A model generated the notes under the pieces. It did not search any database and had not been told where the DNA came from. It was given only the letters and a program-made list of their open reading frames with translations. A DNA stretch of 64,000 nt from Torpedo marmorata (taxonomy: Eukaryota), in the NCBI GenBank assembly GCA_977017645.1, contig OZ360230.1:74710001-74774000 (forward strand). The letters are read 5' to 3'. Shown piece after piece: positions 918 to 41,887 of the stretch; the stretch's first letter is position 1; every line of letters starts with the position of its first letter. A program made the translations under genes and the position numbers.

Positions 918-3900
918 CACTTGTGTCTGAGTCTGAAGTTCATGAGATCAAGTCATACTCCAGAGACAAACGTAAAATCTTTTTTTTTTTTTTTTTACAA
1001 ATTCTTTATAATATTTAATTTAAAATTTTAAATCACAGAATACATAAAATAAAATATGAAATTATCAAAATATTTGTGATACATTTTCACCCCCCCCTCC
1101 CTCCCCTCCCCAACCCTCCCTCCCCTCCCCAACCCTCCCAACTCCACTAATCTAATAAAAATAAAAATATAAAATAAAAGTAAAGAAAGAAAAAAAAGAA
1201 AGAAAAGATAGAGTAAGAAGAATGCCAATCTAAAAACGTACATCTATAAACTAATTCTATTATGGAGGTCAGGTATGCCAGTAGATCCGATGTCCAGAGA
1301 ATAGCAATACATTTCTTTGAAACAGCTAAAGCAATTCGCAAAAATTCTATTTGATACATATTTAATTTCATTTTAATACTAAATTTTCTAATATCCCCAA
1401 ACAAAAATATCATAGGATCCATTGGAAATGTAATCTTAAATAATTTATCTAAAATTTTTTTAACTTTCAACCAGAAATCATAAACTTTTGGACAAAACCA
1501 TGTAGAATGTACAAAAGAACCTTCCTCTTTATTACATCTAAAACATAAACCTGATAATGTCGGATTAAATTTCTTTAATTTTTTAGGTGTTAAATATAAT
1601 TGATGAAAAAAATTGTATTGTACTAATCTATATCTAACATTAATCATCTTCGTCATACTTAATTTACATAATTCTTTCCAATGATTTTCATCTATTGTTA
1701 CATTCAAATCTAATTCCCATTTTAATCTTGATTTATGAATTCCTACTTTAGAAGTTTTCCTCTGGAACAATTTATACATTTGAGAAATAAATTTATTTAC
1801 ATCTCCTTTAGTAACTAATAATTCTAATTCATTCTGTCTTGGTAAAATCAAACTATAACCTAATTTCTCAATCAAAAATGCTCTAATTTGATAATAAGCA
1901 AAAAGTGTATTATCTAATATATTGAATTTATCTTTCATTCTTTGAAAAGTAATAAATTTCCCAGCTTCAAAACAATCATTTATTTTCTTAATTCCTTTTT
2001 GAAACCAAATTTTAAATAATTGATTATTAATAGTAAATGGAATGTTGATTTTGATATAAAGGCATCCTTGGAGAAATCATTCCTTTTCCTCCTATTTCCT
2101 TATCCGTCTTATTCCATATTTCTAACAAATGTTTAAGGATAGGAGAATTTTTCCTTCTTGTTGATATTAATTTAGAATCCCATTTATAAATAACTTCTTC
2201 TTTGGAATCTTCTCCTATATTATTTAATTCTATTTTAATCCAAGCAGAAGATTTAGTTGGATCAAAAAGTTCATTAACAAATTTTAATTGAGCTGCTTTA
2301 TAATAATTTTGGAAATTAGGAAGTTGTAAACCACCAATTTCAAAATTCCAAGTTAATTTTTCTATACGTACTCTTGCTAACTTTCCTTTCTATAAAAATT
2401 TTCTAATAATTGAGTTTAAGTCTTTAAAAGATTTTTGAGGAATTTCATAAGGAATTGATTGGAAAAGATATTGAATTCTTGGAAAAACATTCATTTTAAT
2501 ACAATTTACCCTTCCCATTAAAGTTATAGGTAAATCCTTCCAATTTTCTAAATCCTTTTTTATTTTCACAAATAATGGTAAATAATTTAATTTATATAAA
2601 TTAGCAAATTTTGTATCAATCTTTATTCCCAAATATTTAATTCCTTATTTTACCCATTTAAATTGTGTAATTTCTTTACACTTACTATAATCCCCGTGTG
2701 GTAATGCCATAATTTCACTTTTATCAGTTACTTTTATATCCAGATATTTCCCCATATTCTCTCAATAACGCAGACAATTGTACTAAAGATGTAATAGATT
2801 TTGTCATATATATCAATAGATCATCTGTAAATAAACTAATTTTATGTTCTTCCATTCCAACTTTAATACCAACTATTTTAGGATCTTTTCTAACTAATTC
2901 TGCCAAAGGTTCTATCGCCAAGATAAATAACGCTGGTGACAAAGGACATCCTTGTCTTGTAGATCTAGTCAGGGGAAATCTTGAAGAAATTTGTCCATTT
3001 GTAATTACTTTAGCAGATGGTTCTTTATATATAGTTTTAATCCAATTAATAAATATGGTTCCAAAACCAAATTTCTCCAATACCTTAAATAAGAAATTCC
3101 ACTCTAGTCTATCAAAAGCCTTTTCAGCATCTAGCGTTAAAACTAATGGTAAAACTTCCTTCTTTTTATGTAGATTAATTAAACTATTATCTTTTGAATA
3201 TCTATTTTTAATAAAACCAGCTTGATCAACATGAATTAAATCTGGTAAATAATTAGCCATTCTATTTGCTAAAATTTTTGCCATTATCTTATAATCTACA
3301 TTTAACAATGAAATAGGTCTATATGATTCAGTTTTCAATACATCTCTATCTTTTTTTGGTATGACTGTAATTATTGCATTTAAAAAGGTATCTGGTAATG
3401 AATGGGTTTCCGTAATTTGATTTAATACATCCATATACGGAGGTATTAATAAATCTTTAAACTCTTTATAAAAATCTGATGGAAATCCATCTTCACCTGG
3501 AGATTTACCACTCTTTAGAGAAGTAAGAACTTCATTAACTTTCCTCATTGAGAAAGGTAAATCTAAAGATTCTCTACTTTGGGTATTTAATTTAGGTAGT
3601 GTAATTTTGGATAAAAATCTAATAATTTTAGAATCATCTTGATCAATCTGAGATTTATATAAATTCAAATAGTAATCTTTAAAATAATCATTTATTTCTC
3701 GAGGTTTATAAGTTATTTCCCTAGAATTCTTTTTCCTTATGGCATTTATAGTTCTAGAAGTTTGATCCTTTTTTAATTGCCATGCCAAAACTTTAAGAGC
3801 TCTTTCCCCTAACTCATAATATCTTTGTTTAGTTCTTTCAATTAATTTTTCCATTTTAGATGTTTGTAATAGATTATAATGTAATTTCTTCCCAATTAAA

Positions 3901-8990: not shown

Positions 8991-11900
8991 CAGCCACTCC
9001 ATTCCAAACAAAAATTATTAAATCGGTTGGCTCAATCACATTTTAAAGTGCCATTTTTAAATGATCAGCATCTACTTCCAAGTCCACTATCAGATGTAGA
9101 ATAATGGGGTCAATAAGAGGGGTCTGGATGATCTTAGACTACCCTTGCTCTGGTGTGATTTTCAGAGGTTGTACTAGTATTTACAGAACCAAAACATCAC
9201 TCTAAAATTTCACATTCAAATCACAATCCGAACAAATCAATATCAAATAGAATCATGGAAAGACATGCATATTTTTATTATCCTCTTTGAGTGCTTCCAT
9301 TCAATTCCAATTAAATTAAACTCAAAAATATAGTGGCATTTCTTAAACCACAACATGATAACTCTGCTTGTTCATCTAATTTCTACCCTGTTTCTAATCT
9401 TTAAAAGTTGGACACTGCTCAGCATGCATCCCAAAGAGGCAATGCATGTATCTATATTGTAGACAAGGATGATGTTACTCTGTATCTCATTTCAAAACAT
9501 GTCTGAAGCATGTTTGGAACATTAATATCCATGTTATAACGATTCAATTATTAAAGTAAAAAAAAGAAAATAAACTGTTAGTGAAGGCAGAATTTCTGTG
9601 TTACACAAGACGATTATTCATTCTTTCACTTATCTGAATTAATATTGGTTAGAAAACAAATATTTGGCAACGTTTTACTGAAACATTTTCAAGAATTACA
9701 AGAATGACCTTAAAAGGCAATTACACTTCACAAATATATATCCTGCATTCAGGAACTATACTTTGAATTGTAGACTCAACATTGATACAGATGTAATGAT
9801 TTTAATTTGAAAGACTTTTCATCTTTATTTAACTTTTTAGTTAGCACTTATGATAACATTAAGCACCAATTCAAATGTTTTAGCGGAATCAGAATTGCAG
9901 AACTGAAATTTGTAAGCAAGAGTCTGCAAATAGAATATTGATCATGAAGAAAAAGATCATTTGATTTTCTCTGATAGACTGCGCACAATTGATTTAGGGT
10001 GGCTTTGGTTCCATGCTTTTAAGATGTCCCTGCTAATTTGAACAGCAGAAAAACTTAAGGATATCAGGAAACTTGCTGACACCAATTTGAGCTTGGGGGC
10101 TGACTAACAGCTATGTGGGCTGTAAACAATGCAGATGTGTGGGTTAACACAGAGGCAAGTGGAACAAAAAAGTTGGAGGAAGAGGAGAATTTCTCAGATA
10201 TATTATAATAGTGAAAGACTGAAAGTCATCAATCAGAACAGTGACATAAATGGTGAAATACAACAGTGCTGTTGCGACAAGAGTCCCAGATGTCAGTATC
10301 ACCCGCAGCGTGTCAATCCCCAGGATACCTTGGCTTTATGTATTGTATGCCTGATATTAAGCAAAGTTCACTTCCATTGGCCCATGCAACTGAGCATTGC
10401 TGCTTTCTCTTGCACTTCCTAATACGATCTTTATAATTGCGCAGCCTTATGTGTTTGACTACATTTATCTTTTGACTGATCTTGACAGTCACTTGTAAGG
10501 AAGACTCTGGATCCACCAGATGTTGCGCGGTCCCACAATTACGTAGGGATTATTTCAACTGACAATACTGATGGATCGTACGTACAATGGAACATCAAAA
10601 ACTCAGCGACTCTCACAATACGGATTTTCCACAAATTTGCTTGAATCTTTTCTCCTTGACTAAAGTTTTTATCTCTTATTGTTTTTTCAAGGATAATACA
10701 ATCATGATTACTTTCACAAAATATCTTGAGCCAACCAAATCCAAAAAATCTGCAATGCAAACCAAGAGCATTCAAAGCAATTCTTTTGCTATCATGCTTT
10801 TCTGTCACCCATATCTGAATGTGCTTGTGAGCTTTTTATTGCAATGCAAAACACAAGGCTTGAATTCTTCCACTTCAACATTTTGTAAAGATTTATATTT
10901 GAAATAAAGTAATAGTGATAAGGTCTAGGGGAGAGAAGTGTCTAGTGTCATATTGATCTCACTTCTTATTTTCAAATCAAGGAATACTTGCTGGCATGAT
11001 CACTGACAAGTGGATGGACTCAACGTTTGTCAGGCTCAATAATCCAAAAAGTAATTGAGTAGTCATCATAAAGAAATGTAGACAAGAACCGCATGAAATT
11101 AAATACCAAAAACTGCTACTTATATTTTATCAGTAGCAGAAAATGGAAAACCTCTACAAATTCCTCAGTTTTCTAATCTAACATTAGATGTTTTGTTTTT
11201 GTCATCAGTTTCGACACTCAAAAAACTCTTTATGTGACATCGTGTCCTGAAAGCATCGAACGTTAGTTCATACAACTGTTTATCAATCTTATGAAAACAC
11301 CATTGATTTTGTTGTGCATTGTAATCATGAAAAAGCTAGTAAATAGATTAATGCAGTGAAATTTAACAACACAAAATAAATCGCACTGACTGGAAACAAT
11401 TTTAGTCAATACATGTATTATCCAGTCACTGAGTAAAATACTGTGTCACTATTCCAAAATATTATCCAAGATTAGGCTGACACTGTGATGGATAATATAA
11501 AGTTCATGGGCCACCTGCAGCCTGCAAAAGATTCCCATTCAATCCGCATTTGTTTCAATCACAGCCCACCTGACACTTGGCTCATATTCTTGGAACCTTC
11601 CTTCAGGGCTTTTCAATGCAGTTACATTTGAGCTGGATTCTGACTTGGGTGCATCCAGTCATAATCCTCCAGTTGGTAGCTTTGTCCACAGAACACAAGA
11701 CTTTATGACAAGCCCAGTACCTGACTCTAGTCTCAAGACTCAAGTGACACCAGAGATGAGACATCCAGAGACCAGAAACCTTGTCAGGTGAAAGGGAGTG
11801 AAGTGGAGTGAATGGGCAGTGAATCTAGTGAAGGGGCAGTGAGCGGAAGTGGAACAGTGAGGAGGCAGTGAAAGGAGTCTGAACGGGGGTGTGAGAACAG

Positions 11901-35442: not shown

Positions 35443-35776
35443 TAATTGGCCAATAGTTCCCAGTCTTCTGCCTACATCTCTTCTTAAAAAGTGGCGTGAC
35501 ATTTGCTGTCTTCCAATCTGCCGGGACCTGCCCAGAATCCAGAGAATTTTGCTATATGACCACCAATGCATCGTCTATAACTTCTGCCATCTCCCTCAGA
35601 ACCCTGGGATGAATTTCATCAGGACCAGGGGACTTGTCCGGCTTTAGTCCCATTAGTTTGTTCATCACCATCTCCTTTGTGACAACTATTTTATCAAGGC
35701 CTTCACCAACTTTCGCATCCCTATTTCCACTCTTTGGCATGCTGGACGTATCTTCCACCGTGAAGACTGACACAAA
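35443..35776. repeat. Copy 1 of the ~330-bp duplication flanking the nested L1
   Basis: taattggcc...gactgacacaaa is repeated at 37130-37436. Confidence 0.92.
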
Positions 35777-37132
35777 TTTTTTTTTTTAAATTTAATTTTA
35801 TTTTATTTAAAATTTTAAATCACAAAATACATAAAATAAAATATAAAATTATCAAAATACATGTGATACATTTTCACCCCCCCTCCCTCCCTTAACCCTC
35901 CCACCCCCCTGACTCACACCGGCTCACCGACGAGGCGCGGTCAAGTCGCACAGTACACTGTACGTCCCATTCAACAACCACGCCGAAAGCACGGGGAGCC
36001 CATACTAATCTACTAAAATTTAAAAAAAGAAAGAAAAAGATAGAGTAAGGAGAATGTCAATCTAAAAAGAACAACTATAAACTGATTTTATTGTGGAGGA
36101 TAGGTTCGCCAGTCAGATCCGATGCCCAGAGATCTTCAAATCCTTAAACCAACAGTTTTTATATATGGGCTCCATATTTTCAAAAAGAAATGATATTTAT
36201 TACGTAAATTATAAGTAATTTTTTCAAGTGGTATACATGAACGAAGTTCTGCATGCCATCTTTCTAACCCTAAATCTACGTCAGATTTCCAAGTAATAGC
36301 AATGCATTTCTTAGAAACAGCTAAAGCAATTCGCAAAAATTATATTTGATACATATTTAATTTCATCTTAATACTAATTCTTTTAATGTCTCCAAACAAA
36401 AATATCATTGAGTCCAATGGAAGTGTAATACTCAATACTTTATCTAAAAAGTTTTTAACTTTCAACCAAAAATCATATATCTTTGGACAAAACCATGTAG
36501 AATGTACAAAAGAACCTTCCCCTCTATTACATCTAAAACATAAACCTGTTAATGTCGAATTAAATTTCTTTAATTTTTTAGGCGTTAAATATAATTGATG
36601 AAAGAAATTATATTGAACTAATCTATATCTAACGTTAATAATCTTCGTCATACTTAATTTACATAATTCTTTCCAATGTTCTTCCTCTATTGTTACATTC
36701 AAATCTGATTCCTATTTTAATCTTGATTTATGAATTCCTACTTTAGGGATTTTTCTCTGAAACAATCTATATATTTGAGAAATAAATTTATTTACGCCTC
36801 CATTAGTAACTAATAATTCTAGTTCACTCTGTCTTGGTAGAGTCAAACTATAACCCAACTTCCCAACTAAAAATGCTCTAATTTGATAATAAGCAAAAAG
36901 TGTATTATTCAATACATTAAACATATCTTTCATTCTTTGAAAGTAATAAATTTACTAGCTTCAAAACAATCATTTATTTTCTTAATTCCCTTTTAGAACC
37001 AAATTTTAAATAATTGATTATCAACAGTAAATGGAATAAGTTTATTTTGATATAAAGGCATTTTTCGAGAAATCGACCCTTTCCCTCCTATCTCGCTATC
37101 CACTCTATTCCATATTTCTAACAAATGTTTAA
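35777..37132 (-). mobile_element. 5'-truncated L1 nested in CR1 ORF2, same family as 981-4002
   Basis: Poly(T) at 35777; ORF fragments 36136-36933 align with 1147-1938 and keep the C-terminus (CIPLEKITY...KIWSPY). Confidence 0.95.
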
Positions 37133-37436
37133 TTGGCCGATAGTTCCCAGTCTTCTTCCAACATCCCTTCTTAAAAAGTGACGTGACATTTGCTGTCTTC
37201 CAATCTGCCGGGACCTGCCCAGAATCCAGAGAATTTTGGTATTTTGCCATCTCCCTCAGAACCCTGGGATGCATTTCATCAGGACCAGGGGACTTGTCTG
37301 GCTTTTGTCCCATTAGCTTGTTCATCACCATCTCCTTTGTGACAACTATTTTATCAAGGCCTTCACCAACATTCGCATCCCTATCTCCACTCTTTGGCAT
37401 GCTGGACGTACCTTCCACCGTGAACACTGACACAAA
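37130..37436. repeat. Copy 2 of the duplication (27-bp internal deletion)
   Basis: About 15 substitutions versus copy 1 by manual count. Confidence 0.92.
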
Positions 37437-39635
37437 ATATTTGTTCAAGGCCTCGGCCATTTCCTCATTATTCAATATCAATTTCCCCTTCTCATCTTCC
37501 AAGGGTCCAATGTTAACTCTAGCCACCCTCTTCCGTTTTATATATTTAAAAATTTTTGCTATCTGTTTTTATATTTTGTGCCAATTTACCTTCATAATCC
37601 TTTCTCCCCTTTCTTTTTACCCGCTTTGTTGTCCCTTGTTGTCTTTTAAAGTTTTCCCAATCTTCCAGTTTCCCACAACTCTTTGCAACTTTGTACACCT
37701 GAGCTTTTAATTTTATACTCTCCTTTATTTCCTTAGTTAACCACGGCTGACTCTTCCCTCTCTTGCTGCCCTTATTCTTAACTGGAATATATTTTTGTTG
37801 AGCATTGTTTGAAAAATCTCCTTGAAAATCTTCCACTGTTCCTCAACTGTTCTACCAACTAGCCTGTGCTCCCAGTCCACGCTGACCAATTCCTCCCTCA
37901 TCCTGTGATAGTCTCCCATGTTTAAGCATAATACATTAGTTCTAGCTCTAACTATTTCCCCTTCCATTTGTATGAGAAATTCAATCATACTATGATCGCT
38001 ATTTCCAAGAGGGTCCCTAACTATTATATCATTTACTCTACCTATCTCATTGGACAATACTAGATCCAAAATAGCTTTCACTCTTGTTGGTTCCTTAACA
38101 TGCTGCTCAAGAAAGCTATCACGGATGCATTCTATGAAGTCTTCTTCCAGACTCCCGCGATCAACTTGATTTTCCCAATCTACGTGGTAGTTAAAGTCCC
38201 CCACGACAACTGCCGTTCCATTCTTACATGCCTCACTTATCTCTCTGTTTATTGCCTGTGCCACTGTACTATTTGGTGGGCGATGGACAACACCCACCAG
38301 TGATTTTTTTCCCTTTGTTATTCTTAATCTCCACCCAGATGGACTCAACAGTATGTTCCTTAGATCTTAAATCATCTCTCACTATTGCCTTGAACTCATC
38401 CTTGATTAAGAGCGCCACACCTCCTCCCTTACCATCCTGTCTATCCTTTCGTACTACCTGATACCCTTGAAAGTTTAATTCCCAATCATGGTCATCTTGT
38501 AGCCATGTTTCTGTGATGGCCACTAAATCATATGCCTGGGTACCGATTTGCGTCTCAAGTTCACTAACCTTGTTTCTAATACTGCGGCATTCAGATAAAG
38601 TGCCCTTATGCTCATTGACCTTTTAGAATCTAGTGACTTCTGTATCCTTTGCTTTTGATTTTGATTTTTCTGCCCTCTATTTCTCTTTGTCTTTTTCCTA
38701 ACACTTTCTTTGGTCTCTGTACCACCTTCCTCATTTTTTCTGTGTAGGTTCCCATTCCCCTGCCCCACTAGTTTAAACCTTCCCCAACAGCACAAGCAAA
38801 AGAACTCCCAAGTACATTTATCTCGCCCCTGCCCAGATGTAGACCGTCTGGCCTGTATTGGTCCCATCTGCCCCAGAACCGGTTCCAATGCTTCAAGAAA
38901 CTGAAACCTTCCCTCCAGCACCACTGTTCAAGCCACATATTCATTCTGACAATTCTGTTATTTGTATTCTCACTAGCTTGTGGTACTGGTAATAATCCTG
39001 AGATTATTACTTTTGAGGTCCTACTCCTTAATCTATTTCCTAACTCCCTAAATTCAGCTTGTTGGAGCTCATCTCGCATTTTTCCTATATCGTTGGTACC
39101 AATAATGGACCACGACAGCTCGCTGTTCACCCTCCCCTTCCAGAATGTCCTGCAGCCGCTCCAAGACATCCTTGTCCCTTGCACCCAGGAGGCAGCACAC
39201 CATCCGGGAGTCCTTTTTGCGGCCGCAGAAGCTCCTGTCTGTTCCTCTCACCATAGAGTCCCCTATAACTATTACTCTACCTGTCTTTTTCTTTCCCTCT
39301 TTCATAGCTGAGCCACTCACAGAGCCATGATCCTGGCTTCTACTGCCTTCTCCTGGTGGGCCATCTCCCCCAACCATATCTAAAGCGGTATATCTGTTAC
39401 GAAGAGTGATGACCGCAGGAGACTCCCGCACTACCTTTCTGTTTCCGCTCTTGCTGCTGGTCATCCAGTCCTTATCTACTTCTGCTCTCTTAAACTGCGG
39501 CGTGACCAACTCACTGAATGTCCTATCCACCATCATCTCCGCATCCCGGATGCTCCAAAGTGAGTTCATCCGCAGCTCCAGTGCCGTCGTGCGGTCTATC
39601 AGCAGTTGTAGTTGTAAACACTTTATGCACACGTA

Positions 39636-41506
39636 AAAAGTAAACACGAAAATCTGTAGACACCGTAATAATGTAGTAAAAAACACAAATGCTGGAGAAC
39701 TCAGCAGGTCAAACAGTGTCTTTTATGTAGCAAAGGTAGAAATACATAACTGACGTTTCAGGCTTGAGCCCTTCTTCAAAGTATGAGAAAATGCCGGCAG
39801 ACGTCCGAACAAAGGAGTGAGGGGGGAAGGGTGGGTGGGAAGGGCAGAAGATAATAGGTGGAGACAGGAGGGAGGGGACAGTAGCAAAGAGGGGGAGGAG
39901 GGATGGCTGGGTAGCTGGAGAAACACAGGAAGGACAGGTGAGGGGGGAGGGGAAGGGAACAACAAGCAGGTTTAGTGGAAAGCAGAAAAGTCAATGTTAA
40001 TTCCATCTGGCTGGAGAGTGCCGAGACGGAATATGAGATGTTGTTCCTCCAGTTTGCGGGTAGTCTTGGTGGGATAGTACATGAGGCCATGGACAGACAT
40101 GTGAGTGTGGGAGTGTGACCCAGAATTGAAATGGTTGGCCACTGGGAGGTCGCTGTTGATGCGAACCGAGCGGAGGTGCTGAGCGAAGCGATCTCCCAAT
40201 CTACGACCGGTCTCTCCAATGTATAGAAAGCCACAAAGGGAGCACCGGATGCAGTAAATAAGTCCTCTGGATGTACAAGTGAAGTGTTGCTTCACTTGGA
40301 AGGCCTGTTTGGGGCCCTGGACCGTGGTGAGGGGGGACGTGTGGGCGCAGGTGTTGCACCTCCTGCGGGCACAGGGGAAGGTTCCGGGGGTGCGATGGGT
40401 GGGGAGGGACGAGTGCACGAGTGAATCACGGAGGGAGCGGTCCCTACGGAAGGCCGAGAGGGGAGGAGAAGGAAAAATGTGTCTGGTGGTGGGATCCTGC
40501 AGCAAGTGCCGGAAATTCCGACGGATAATGTGTTGGATGCGGAGGCTGGTGGGGTGGTAGGTGAGGATGAGGGGTATTCTATGTTTGTTGTGTCTGGGGG
40601 CAGAGGGGGCCAGGGCAGATGAGCGGGAAATGGAGGAGATGCGGGTGAGGGCTGAGTTGATGGTGGTGGAGGGGAAGCCACGTTTGTGGAAAAAGGCAGA
40701 CATTTCAGAAGATCTGGAGTGGAACACCTCATCTTGGGAACAGATGCGGCGGAGGCGGAGAAATTGAGAGAAGGGGATGGAGTCCTTGCAGGGGACAGGG
40801 TGTGAGGATGTGTAGTCCAGATAGTTGTGGGAGTTGGAGGGTTTGTAGTAAATGTCGGTGGAAAGCTTGTCTCCCGAGATGGAGACAGAGAGATCCAGGA
40901 AGGGGAGAGTGTTATCGGAGATGGACCAGGTGAGTTTGAGATCATGGTGAAAGTTGGATGCGAAGTGGATGAAGTTGACAAGCTCATCGTGGGTGCATGA
41001 GGCAGCCCCGATGTAGTCGTCGATATACCGGAGGAAGAGATGAGGGGTCTTGCCTGTGTAGGCTTGCAGCATGGATTGCTCCACAAAGCCCACAAACAGG
41101 CAGGCGTAGCTGGGACCCATGCGGGTACCCATGGCTACTCCTTTGATTTGGAGGAAGTGGGATGAGTTGAAGGAGAAGTTATTGAGAGTAAGGACAAGTT
41201 CTGCCAGGCGGAGGAGGGTGGTGGTAGAGGGTGACTGGTCGGGTCTTTGGTCCAGGAAGAAGCGAAGTGCTTTCAGACCTTCTGTGTGGGGGATGGAGGT
41301 ATAAAGGGATTGGACATCCATGGTGAAGATGATGCGGTCCGGTTCAGGGAATCTGAAGTCATTGAGGAGATGGAGGGCATGTGAGGTGTCGCGGATGTAG
41401 GTGGGGAGGGATTGGACCAGGGGAGAAAAGATGGAGTCAAGGTAAGATGAAACTAGTTCGGTGGGGCAGGAGCAGGCAGAAACAATGGGTCTGCCCGGAT
41501 GGTCAG
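39636..41506 (-). mobile_element. 5'-truncated Penelope-like element (Neptune-type) nested in CR1 ORF1
   Basis: Uninterrupted ORF: GRPIVS, MDVQSLYTSIP, GVAMGTRMGPSYA, YIDD, linker C-x4-C-x2-C, GIY-YIG (LIYCIRC...YIGETGR...R..QH...NHF...EE...L...G.N). Confidence 0.95.
39745..39785 (-). ncRNA. Minimal type I hammerhead-like ribozyme motif in the Penelope 3' region
   Basis: Minus strand: cauac-UUUGAAGA-A-GGGC-ucaa-GCCU-GAAA-CG-UC-aguuaug. Penelope elements are known to carry such minimal hammerheads. Confidence 0.65.
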
Positions 41507-41567
41507 TCGTCCTGAGTTCCCACATGGCACAGGAGGAACATGACACGGGTTGGACCTCACCTACCAT
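39972..41567 (-). CDS. Chimeric open frame: ~20 aa of CR1 ORF1 fused to Penelope RT/GIY-YIG (531 aa from the ATG); expression unknown
   Basis: MVGEVQPVSCSSCAMWELRT joins TDHPGRPIVS with no stop or frameshift until 39972. Confidence 0.5.
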   Translation of the reverse strand: MVGEVQPVSCSSCAMWELRTTDHPGRPIVSACSCPTELVSSYLDSIFSPLVQSLPTYIRDTSHALHLLNDFRFPEPDRIIFTMDVQSLYTSIPHTEGLKALRFFLDQRPDQSPSTTTLLRLAELVLTLNNFSFNSSHFLQIKGVAMGTRMGPSYACLFVGFVEQSMLQAYTGKTPHLFLRYIDDYIGAASCTHDELVNFIHFASNFHHDLKLTWSISDNTLPFLDLSVSISGDKLSTDIYYKPSNSHNYLDYTSSHPVPCKDSIPFSQFLRLRRICSQDEVFHSRSSEMSAFFHKRGFPSTTINSALTRISSISRSSALAPSAPRHNKHRIPLILTYHPTSLRIQHIIRRNFRHLLQDPTTRHIFPSPPLSAFRRDRSLRDSLVHSSLPTHRTPGTFPCARRRCNTCAHTSPLTTVQGPKQAFQVKQHFTCTSRGLIYCIRCSLCGFLYIGETGRRLGDRFAQHLRSVRINSDLPVANHFNSGSHSHTHMSVHGLMYYPTKTTRKLEEQHLIFRLGTLQPDGINIDFSAFH

Positions 41568-41887
41568 GTCTGAAACGTGCACAGTTGTCTTGTTACTAAT
41601 CAAAGTGACAAATTAGAAAGAAGAAACTTACCCCTTGTAAAGTGCCTCAACCTCTCCGCGCCGAAGCCTCTTGAGCCAAAGCCTGGAAGTCCCATTCCTT
41701 CGCTGTGCCACTCACTCACTGGGCCGCTCCCTGTCTCTCTTATTTATTAGCCTTTTACTAATTAACCCTGACACCCTCTCCTCTACGCCCGACCAATGAC
41801 CGCCTCCGACTCCTCCTTGGACCTTTGCCGCAGGCCCCGGTAAGTAACTTTTAAAAAACCCTCTGTCTTCTCCTCTCTCCTCTCCCA

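Follow-up and report, generated by a model that had tools for sequence, protein, structure and literature searches.

Fragments of 28S rRNA joined to L1 retrotransposons have been described in human, where 18 chimeric 28S/L1 insertions carry the rRNA at the L1 5' end, 83% of them in sense orientation (10.1101/2025.02.02.635956). According to the main text of that study, the 28S fragments are 50-482 nt long, often start near nt 3636 and are ascribed to template switching or RNA ligation (10.1101/2025.02.02.635956). Stand-alone spread of 28S sequence is represented by SINE28, a Pol III SINE derived from the 28S 3' end and described at 27 human loci (PMC4994717). Besides these, rDNA pieces occur in Pokey (IGS repeats) and in Cassandra and SINE3 (5S), and the review that treats them speculates that most rDNA modules of mobile elements bring the element no benefit; its Table 2, on rDNA in mobile elements, holds no LINE with internal 28S (PMC10946416).

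The locus described here is a GC-rich block in an L1 copy of Torpedo marmorata, within a window of 64,000 nt (the whole stretch of DNA analysed). Like the human chimeras, which are mostly sense, the block is a sense 28S fragment joined to L1; unlike them, it comes from D2, is embedded in the 3' UTR between stretches of L1 sequence and has been amplified over 1000-fold with its subfamily, although the supplements of the human study may list internal cases (10.1101/2025.02.02.635956). It has in common with SINE28 that 28S-derived sequence was spread by retrotransposition, whereas it originates from ~nt 766-859 and is seen only inside L1 or in rDNA context, in contrast to the SINE as it is described (PMC4994717). 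As in Pokey, Cassandra and SINE3, an rDNA module is carried by a mobile element; the 5S cases of the review supply a promoter (PMC10946416), which the 28S block is not known to do. In the literature searched (most subscription journals and Repbase lay outside its scope, so this is no proof of absence), no report was found of an amplifying L1 subfamily whose 3' UTR holds a fixed 28S piece. What is new relative to the known 28S/L1 chimeras is the internal position and the amplification by a whole subfamily.

A GC-rich module in the 3' UTR of an L1 subfamily

A reading of the sequence alone had pointed out a CpG-rich block inside an AT-rich L1, and the composition agrees: 35910-36003 has 10 CpG and 61% GC, against 0 CpG in 139 nt (26% GC) on one side and 11 CpG in 997 nt (27% GC) on the other. 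The features of the locus are as follows.

35910..36003, minus strand: 28S rRNA-derived insert from the D2 expansion region, ~nt 766-859 of host 28S (blastn to rDNA unit L193; Rfam LSU match on the same strand)
35911..36000, minus strand: predicted rod hairpin of the least-changed copies and the donor (fold prediction; 35/35 donor pairs common)
35947..35964, minus strand: apical 7-bp stem with a 4-nt loop, predicted to fold in wider rRNA context too
35875..35909, minus strand: G-rich tract of the L1 3' UTR that adjoins the insert on its 3' side, with the insertion point at the tract's 5' edge
35780..37132, minus strand: 5'-truncated L1 copy with insert, comprising ORF2 end, 3' UTR and A-rich tail (blastn to 20 longer copies)
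1090..1152, minus strand: empty site in the sister L1 copy (~975-2104, 86-89% identical; comparison of copies)

The block lies ~130 nt before the L1 tail and, by eye, ~130 nt after the ORF2 stop. A zf-RVT match at 36340-36711, the end of ORF2, falls below the Pfam cut-off, and a longer relative (L214) contains the Exo_endo_phos (endonuclease) and RVT_1 (RT) domains. The block is therefore a module between the ORF2 end and the tail of an L1, and it is present in many copies: its central 26-mer has 1027 exact copies in the genome, and the total is estimated at roughly 2,100, given that 21 of 43 copies picked by their end patterns had the exact core. The exact empty site is found 3914 times, against the 1027 exact filled cores. 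In all 60 copies sampled among the first 100 matches listed, at least one flank is L1 3' sequence, and in 52 both are (motif test); at the loci inspected, the block was found outside rDNA context only in L1. Genome counts and sampled copies thus uphold the earlier suggestion that the block is subfamily-specific, as it marks one L1 subfamily. Its proposed role as an ORF2p-recognition element is unlikely, since L1 copies without the block outnumber those with it.

The sister L1 at ~975-2104 has no block, as had been stated from the sequence alone, and neither have three L1 relatives that are ~78% identical; the block is therefore an insertion and the empty state is ancestral. Filled copies diverge from the group consensus by ~2% and empty copies by ~4%. 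The copy tree is not reliably rootable on distant outgroups, and the polarity of changes was set by the 28S donor described below. The viral and metagenome contigs searched gave no match to the block. Among sequencing runs, it was detected in one DNA run and in no RNA run listed, and the contigs of one DNA run with the block carry the same major variants and the same junction.

Of 30 inspected loci, nine end in the last ~10 nt of the insert; a truncation hotspot at this end is not claimed, since as many are expected from the background truncation rate, roughly estimated by hand. At L004:1627-1900, a short filled L1 3' end adjoins a longer empty L1 copy in the same orientation. In the window, a ~340-nt RT-element segment flanks the L1 copy as a direct repeat (35443-35785 and 37130-37445); with 87% identity, it is too diverged for a target-site duplication.

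Host 28S rRNA as the source of the block

In a blastn comparison with host 28S rDNA (unit L193), 35910-36001 is identical at 81/92 positions (E 3e-27), and this interval is what clear homology to 28S covers. The donor segment, ~nt 766-859 of host 28S and presumably the region named D2 / ES7L, is identical to the least-changed L1 haplotype at 86/94 positions and to the window copy at 82/94. The sense strand of the rRNA is that of L1, the LSU match and the L1 lying on the same strand relative to the block. The source of the block is host 28S rRNA. Of the origins considered in the sequence-only reading, a captured RNA has thus found its cellular source, while the same match comes close to one of the cases named there as refuting, a match to an ordinary known repeat or rRNA spacer; the block is multi-copy, not single-copy. 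Pre-miRNA and MITE readings of the block were dropped on finding the donor.

The donor was reached through a pattern search built for an odd variant count, which gave 137 places; among the 100 that were listed, the majority fall in ~20-kb tandem arrays, and the first six loci comprise four L1 copies, one rDNA and one rDNA-like pseudogene (L190). The arrays are rDNA, with 18S, 5.8S and 28S found by Rfam on one strand, and the donor segment lies inside the RF02543 matches, where it occupies insert states that follow LSU model position 604 and immediately precede a conserved core. It is identical in 7/7 rDNA-context loci compared, and the core motif of this rDNA class occurs 111 times in the genome. 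An apparent excess of 149 plus-strand A-to-G variants was rejected, these being mostly rDNA copies. Donor hunts with negated L1 flanks returned only L1 copies and one chance match, having missed the rDNA because it differs at 8 positions. Rfam scans of the window and of a least-changed copy gave only weak matches below gathering scores, none of them informative; the lone 94-nt piece goes unseen because expansion segments are insert states in the LSU model. The same rod is predicted for the donor and for the L1 version, so the block owes its GC content, its CpGs and its predicted fold to the rRNA.

Other features of the rDNA were also observed. At L191:618-3098 (minus strand; G000:C757), an 826-aa RT frame (RVT_1, E 9e-30) follows the end of this unit's 28S match, at model position 2343, and resembles an R2-type element located in rDNA. 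A second, older 28S-like stretch at 11621-11680 of the window is identical to the 3' part of 28S at 47/60 positions (E 3e-7). In the rDNA arrays on G000 C30, C266, C615, C757, C1581, C2237 and C2518, the conserved 28S core departs from the Rfam consensus at two positions in 111 copies, and the Rfam-consensus form of that core had 0 matches in the genome; the difference could be a species trait, a variant rDNA class or an effect of stretches missing from the searched sequence.

Junctions and the route of capture

On the L1 5' side of the insert, CCC(N)T is common to donor and empty site; on the opposite side they share no more than a T, and the filled site has two extra C. There is no target-site duplication at the insert, both insert ends lie at most 3 nt from the base of the predicted rod, and the block, flanked by L1 sequence at either end, is internal rather than at an insertion 5' end. 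These junctions fit template switching and DNA-level patching alike. On balance, we lean towards the reading that the block, a 94-nt host 28S rRNA piece fixed in the 3' UTR of one L1 subfamily, was likely captured by a double template switch and is likely a tolerated, decaying passenger.

For the capture, ORF2p would have copied the L1 tail through the G-rich tract and then paused; it would then have switched to 28S RNA, intact or fragmentary, and copied a predicted hairpin arm from base to base; finally, it may have returned to the L1 RNA at the same place via 3-5 nt of CCC(N)T microhomology, yielding a product that presumably stayed a competent source element. Such a double ORF2p switch, with its pause at the G-rich tract, would be the simplest account of the junctions. 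The sense orientation, as in 83% of the 18 human 28S/L1 chimeras, argues for template switching, and the internal position needs two switches. Points against the favoured reading include the pairing pattern of the donor/L1 differences and of the shared changes described below, and the fact that the whole rod in the rRNA is only predicted. A further one is the number of differences between rDNA and the least-changed L1: 8 is high when the copies of the subfamily lie ~2% from their group consensus, although these differences may have arisen in the rDNA. A second rDNA class was not seen in the contigs of one DNA run, which cannot show absence.

The same donor and passenger status would follow if a break at the G-rich tract of the source L1 had been patched at the DNA level with rDNA or 28S cDNA. 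End-joining also leaves junctions with no target-site duplication and only microhomology, and rDNA-like pseudogene copies are present in the genome, as at L190. Nevertheless, insert ends so close to the predicted RNA hairpin base, together with the sense orientation, suit an RNA template, and genome pattern searches for an rDNA-context copy with L1-type letters gave 0 matches. DNA-level capture is therefore considered unlikely, though it ranks first among the alternatives to the double template switch.

Predicted fold: drift, selection and the ribozyme reading

The helices proposed from the sequence alone (GGCUC/GAGCC, CCG/CGG, a long G-U-rich helix and an apical GUACAG/CUGUGC) all appear in the minus-strand minimum-energy fold predicted for the window copy (z = -1.99, with 7/200 shuffles folding as well; plus strand z = -0.97). 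The hairpin as a whole needs correction, as the window copy departs from the least-changed haplotype at 4/94 positions, and in least-changed-type copies the lower stem adopts another register, giving one predicted rod over the entire insert. Seven of the eight commonest full sequences are predicted to form one rod on the L1 sense strand (z -1.7 to -2.8), and the eighth branches (z -1.1); the opposite strands of these sequences give z -0.5 to -1.8. The predicted fold of the least-changed L1 haplotype retains every one of the 35 donor pairs. For the isolated donor the same rod is predicted, with z -0.83, and ~4% of shuffles give a full-length rod (20/500 and 21/500). The rod thus constitutes modest evidence. 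In a 451 nt rRNA context only the apical stem is predicted to be stable, and the whole rod in the rRNA itself is only predicted.

Since capture, the block has drifted stepwise from its donor via CpG loss, the mean identity along the haplotype series being 0.902, 0.893, 0.880, 0.863 and 0.852. The commonest haplotype (42/60 sampled) is the one furthest from the donor. In it, a CpG change breaks a stem pair, the ensemble energy moves from -47.1 to -41.7, and the resulting stability is no better than that left by random same-type changes (30% of 1000 reach it). The passenger reading is accordingly more likely than a fold kept by selection.

The rRNA hairpin might instead have been kept as helpful to L1, through stabilising the RNA 3' end or binding proteins of this ribosomal expansion segment. 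Of the 8 differences between the donor and the least-changed L1, six are at unpaired sites (P 0.005) and no pair is broken by any of them (P 0.059, random transitions). The least-changed L1 version also gains slightly in stability over the donor, a level attained by 7.6% of random same-type sets. Variation was examined in 147 copies, with 9 repeated or duplicated loci dropped; because some of these copies had been selected through patterns within the block, variation in it appears lower than it is. Three non-CpG changes shared among the copies, at 35971, 35941 and 35986, each create a pair in the predicted fold or make one stronger: the first two are sense A-to-G changes that turn an A-C mismatch into a G-C pair, and the third turns U-G into C-G. 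Shared sense A-to-G changes affect 2/8 block sites versus 4/263 flank sites (Fisher p 0.011, in a test chosen post hoc). However, the majority haplotype breaks a pair, none of the shared changes keeps a pair through change on both sides, and empty L1s outnumber filled ones. A third A-C mismatch is among four apical A sites which, taken together, raise the count of 1027 by just 24 copies, about the flank rate of 4.6 per 1000 site-copies; A-to-G at this third mismatch would gain 7 kcal/mol, yet no excess is seen there. The hints of kept structure in the block are weak, and a helpful hairpin, placed after DNA-level capture, is doubtful. A more elaborate version is rated lower still and seems improbable: an autonomous L1 lineage would have captured an expansion-segment hairpin arm and kept its fold as a ribosome mimic in the 3' UTR, for RNA stability or recruitment of a ribosome-bound factor, and the A-to-G changes at A-C mismatches would record editing or selection in source-element RNA.

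That the block is, or descends from, a hammerhead or HDV-like ribozyme is highly improbable, for the rRNA donor lacks both core words (CYGANGA and GAAA), the block has no U4, stem III, NUH site or other cleavage site, and CUGANGA occurs in 1/147 copies. The plus-strand words that had prompted the idea are present (CCGACGA, a 4-bp stem, GAAA), and a loose version of the motif has 3 occurrences in the window, both strands counted (128 kb). These words arose through L1-side differences on the strand antisense to L1. The Rfam scan called for in the sequence-only reading gave no ribozyme match, hammerhead or HDV-like included, in the window copy or a least-changed copy; it also missed a Penelope hammerhead-like motif in the same window. 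This minimal motif, at 39745-39775 (minus strand), lies downstream of an RT/GIY-YIG frame at 39972-41612 and has its first core letter changed; we take it to be as in Penelope-like elements, which carry minimal hammerhead ribozymes. The block and the Penelope minimal hammerheads have in common tandem GA/GA by a short stem and the GAAA word, whereas the block is without U4, stem III and NUH, runs antisense to its element and has no counterpart of the motif in its donor.

A cellular RNA fragment has thus entered the interior of an L1 3' UTR, and the lineage carrying it has made over a thousand copies, with donor, empty site and intermediate haplotypes all in one genome. This provides a dated example of L1 tails gaining unrelated sequence, a process so far raised as speculation for L1 5' UTRs in the human study (10.1101/2025.02.02.635956). 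In practice, such L1 copies are a possible source of error when rRNA reads are filtered or D2 is used for barcoding in Torpedo marmorata. Should the hairpin prove functional, a retrotransposon would be using a part derived from the ribosome.
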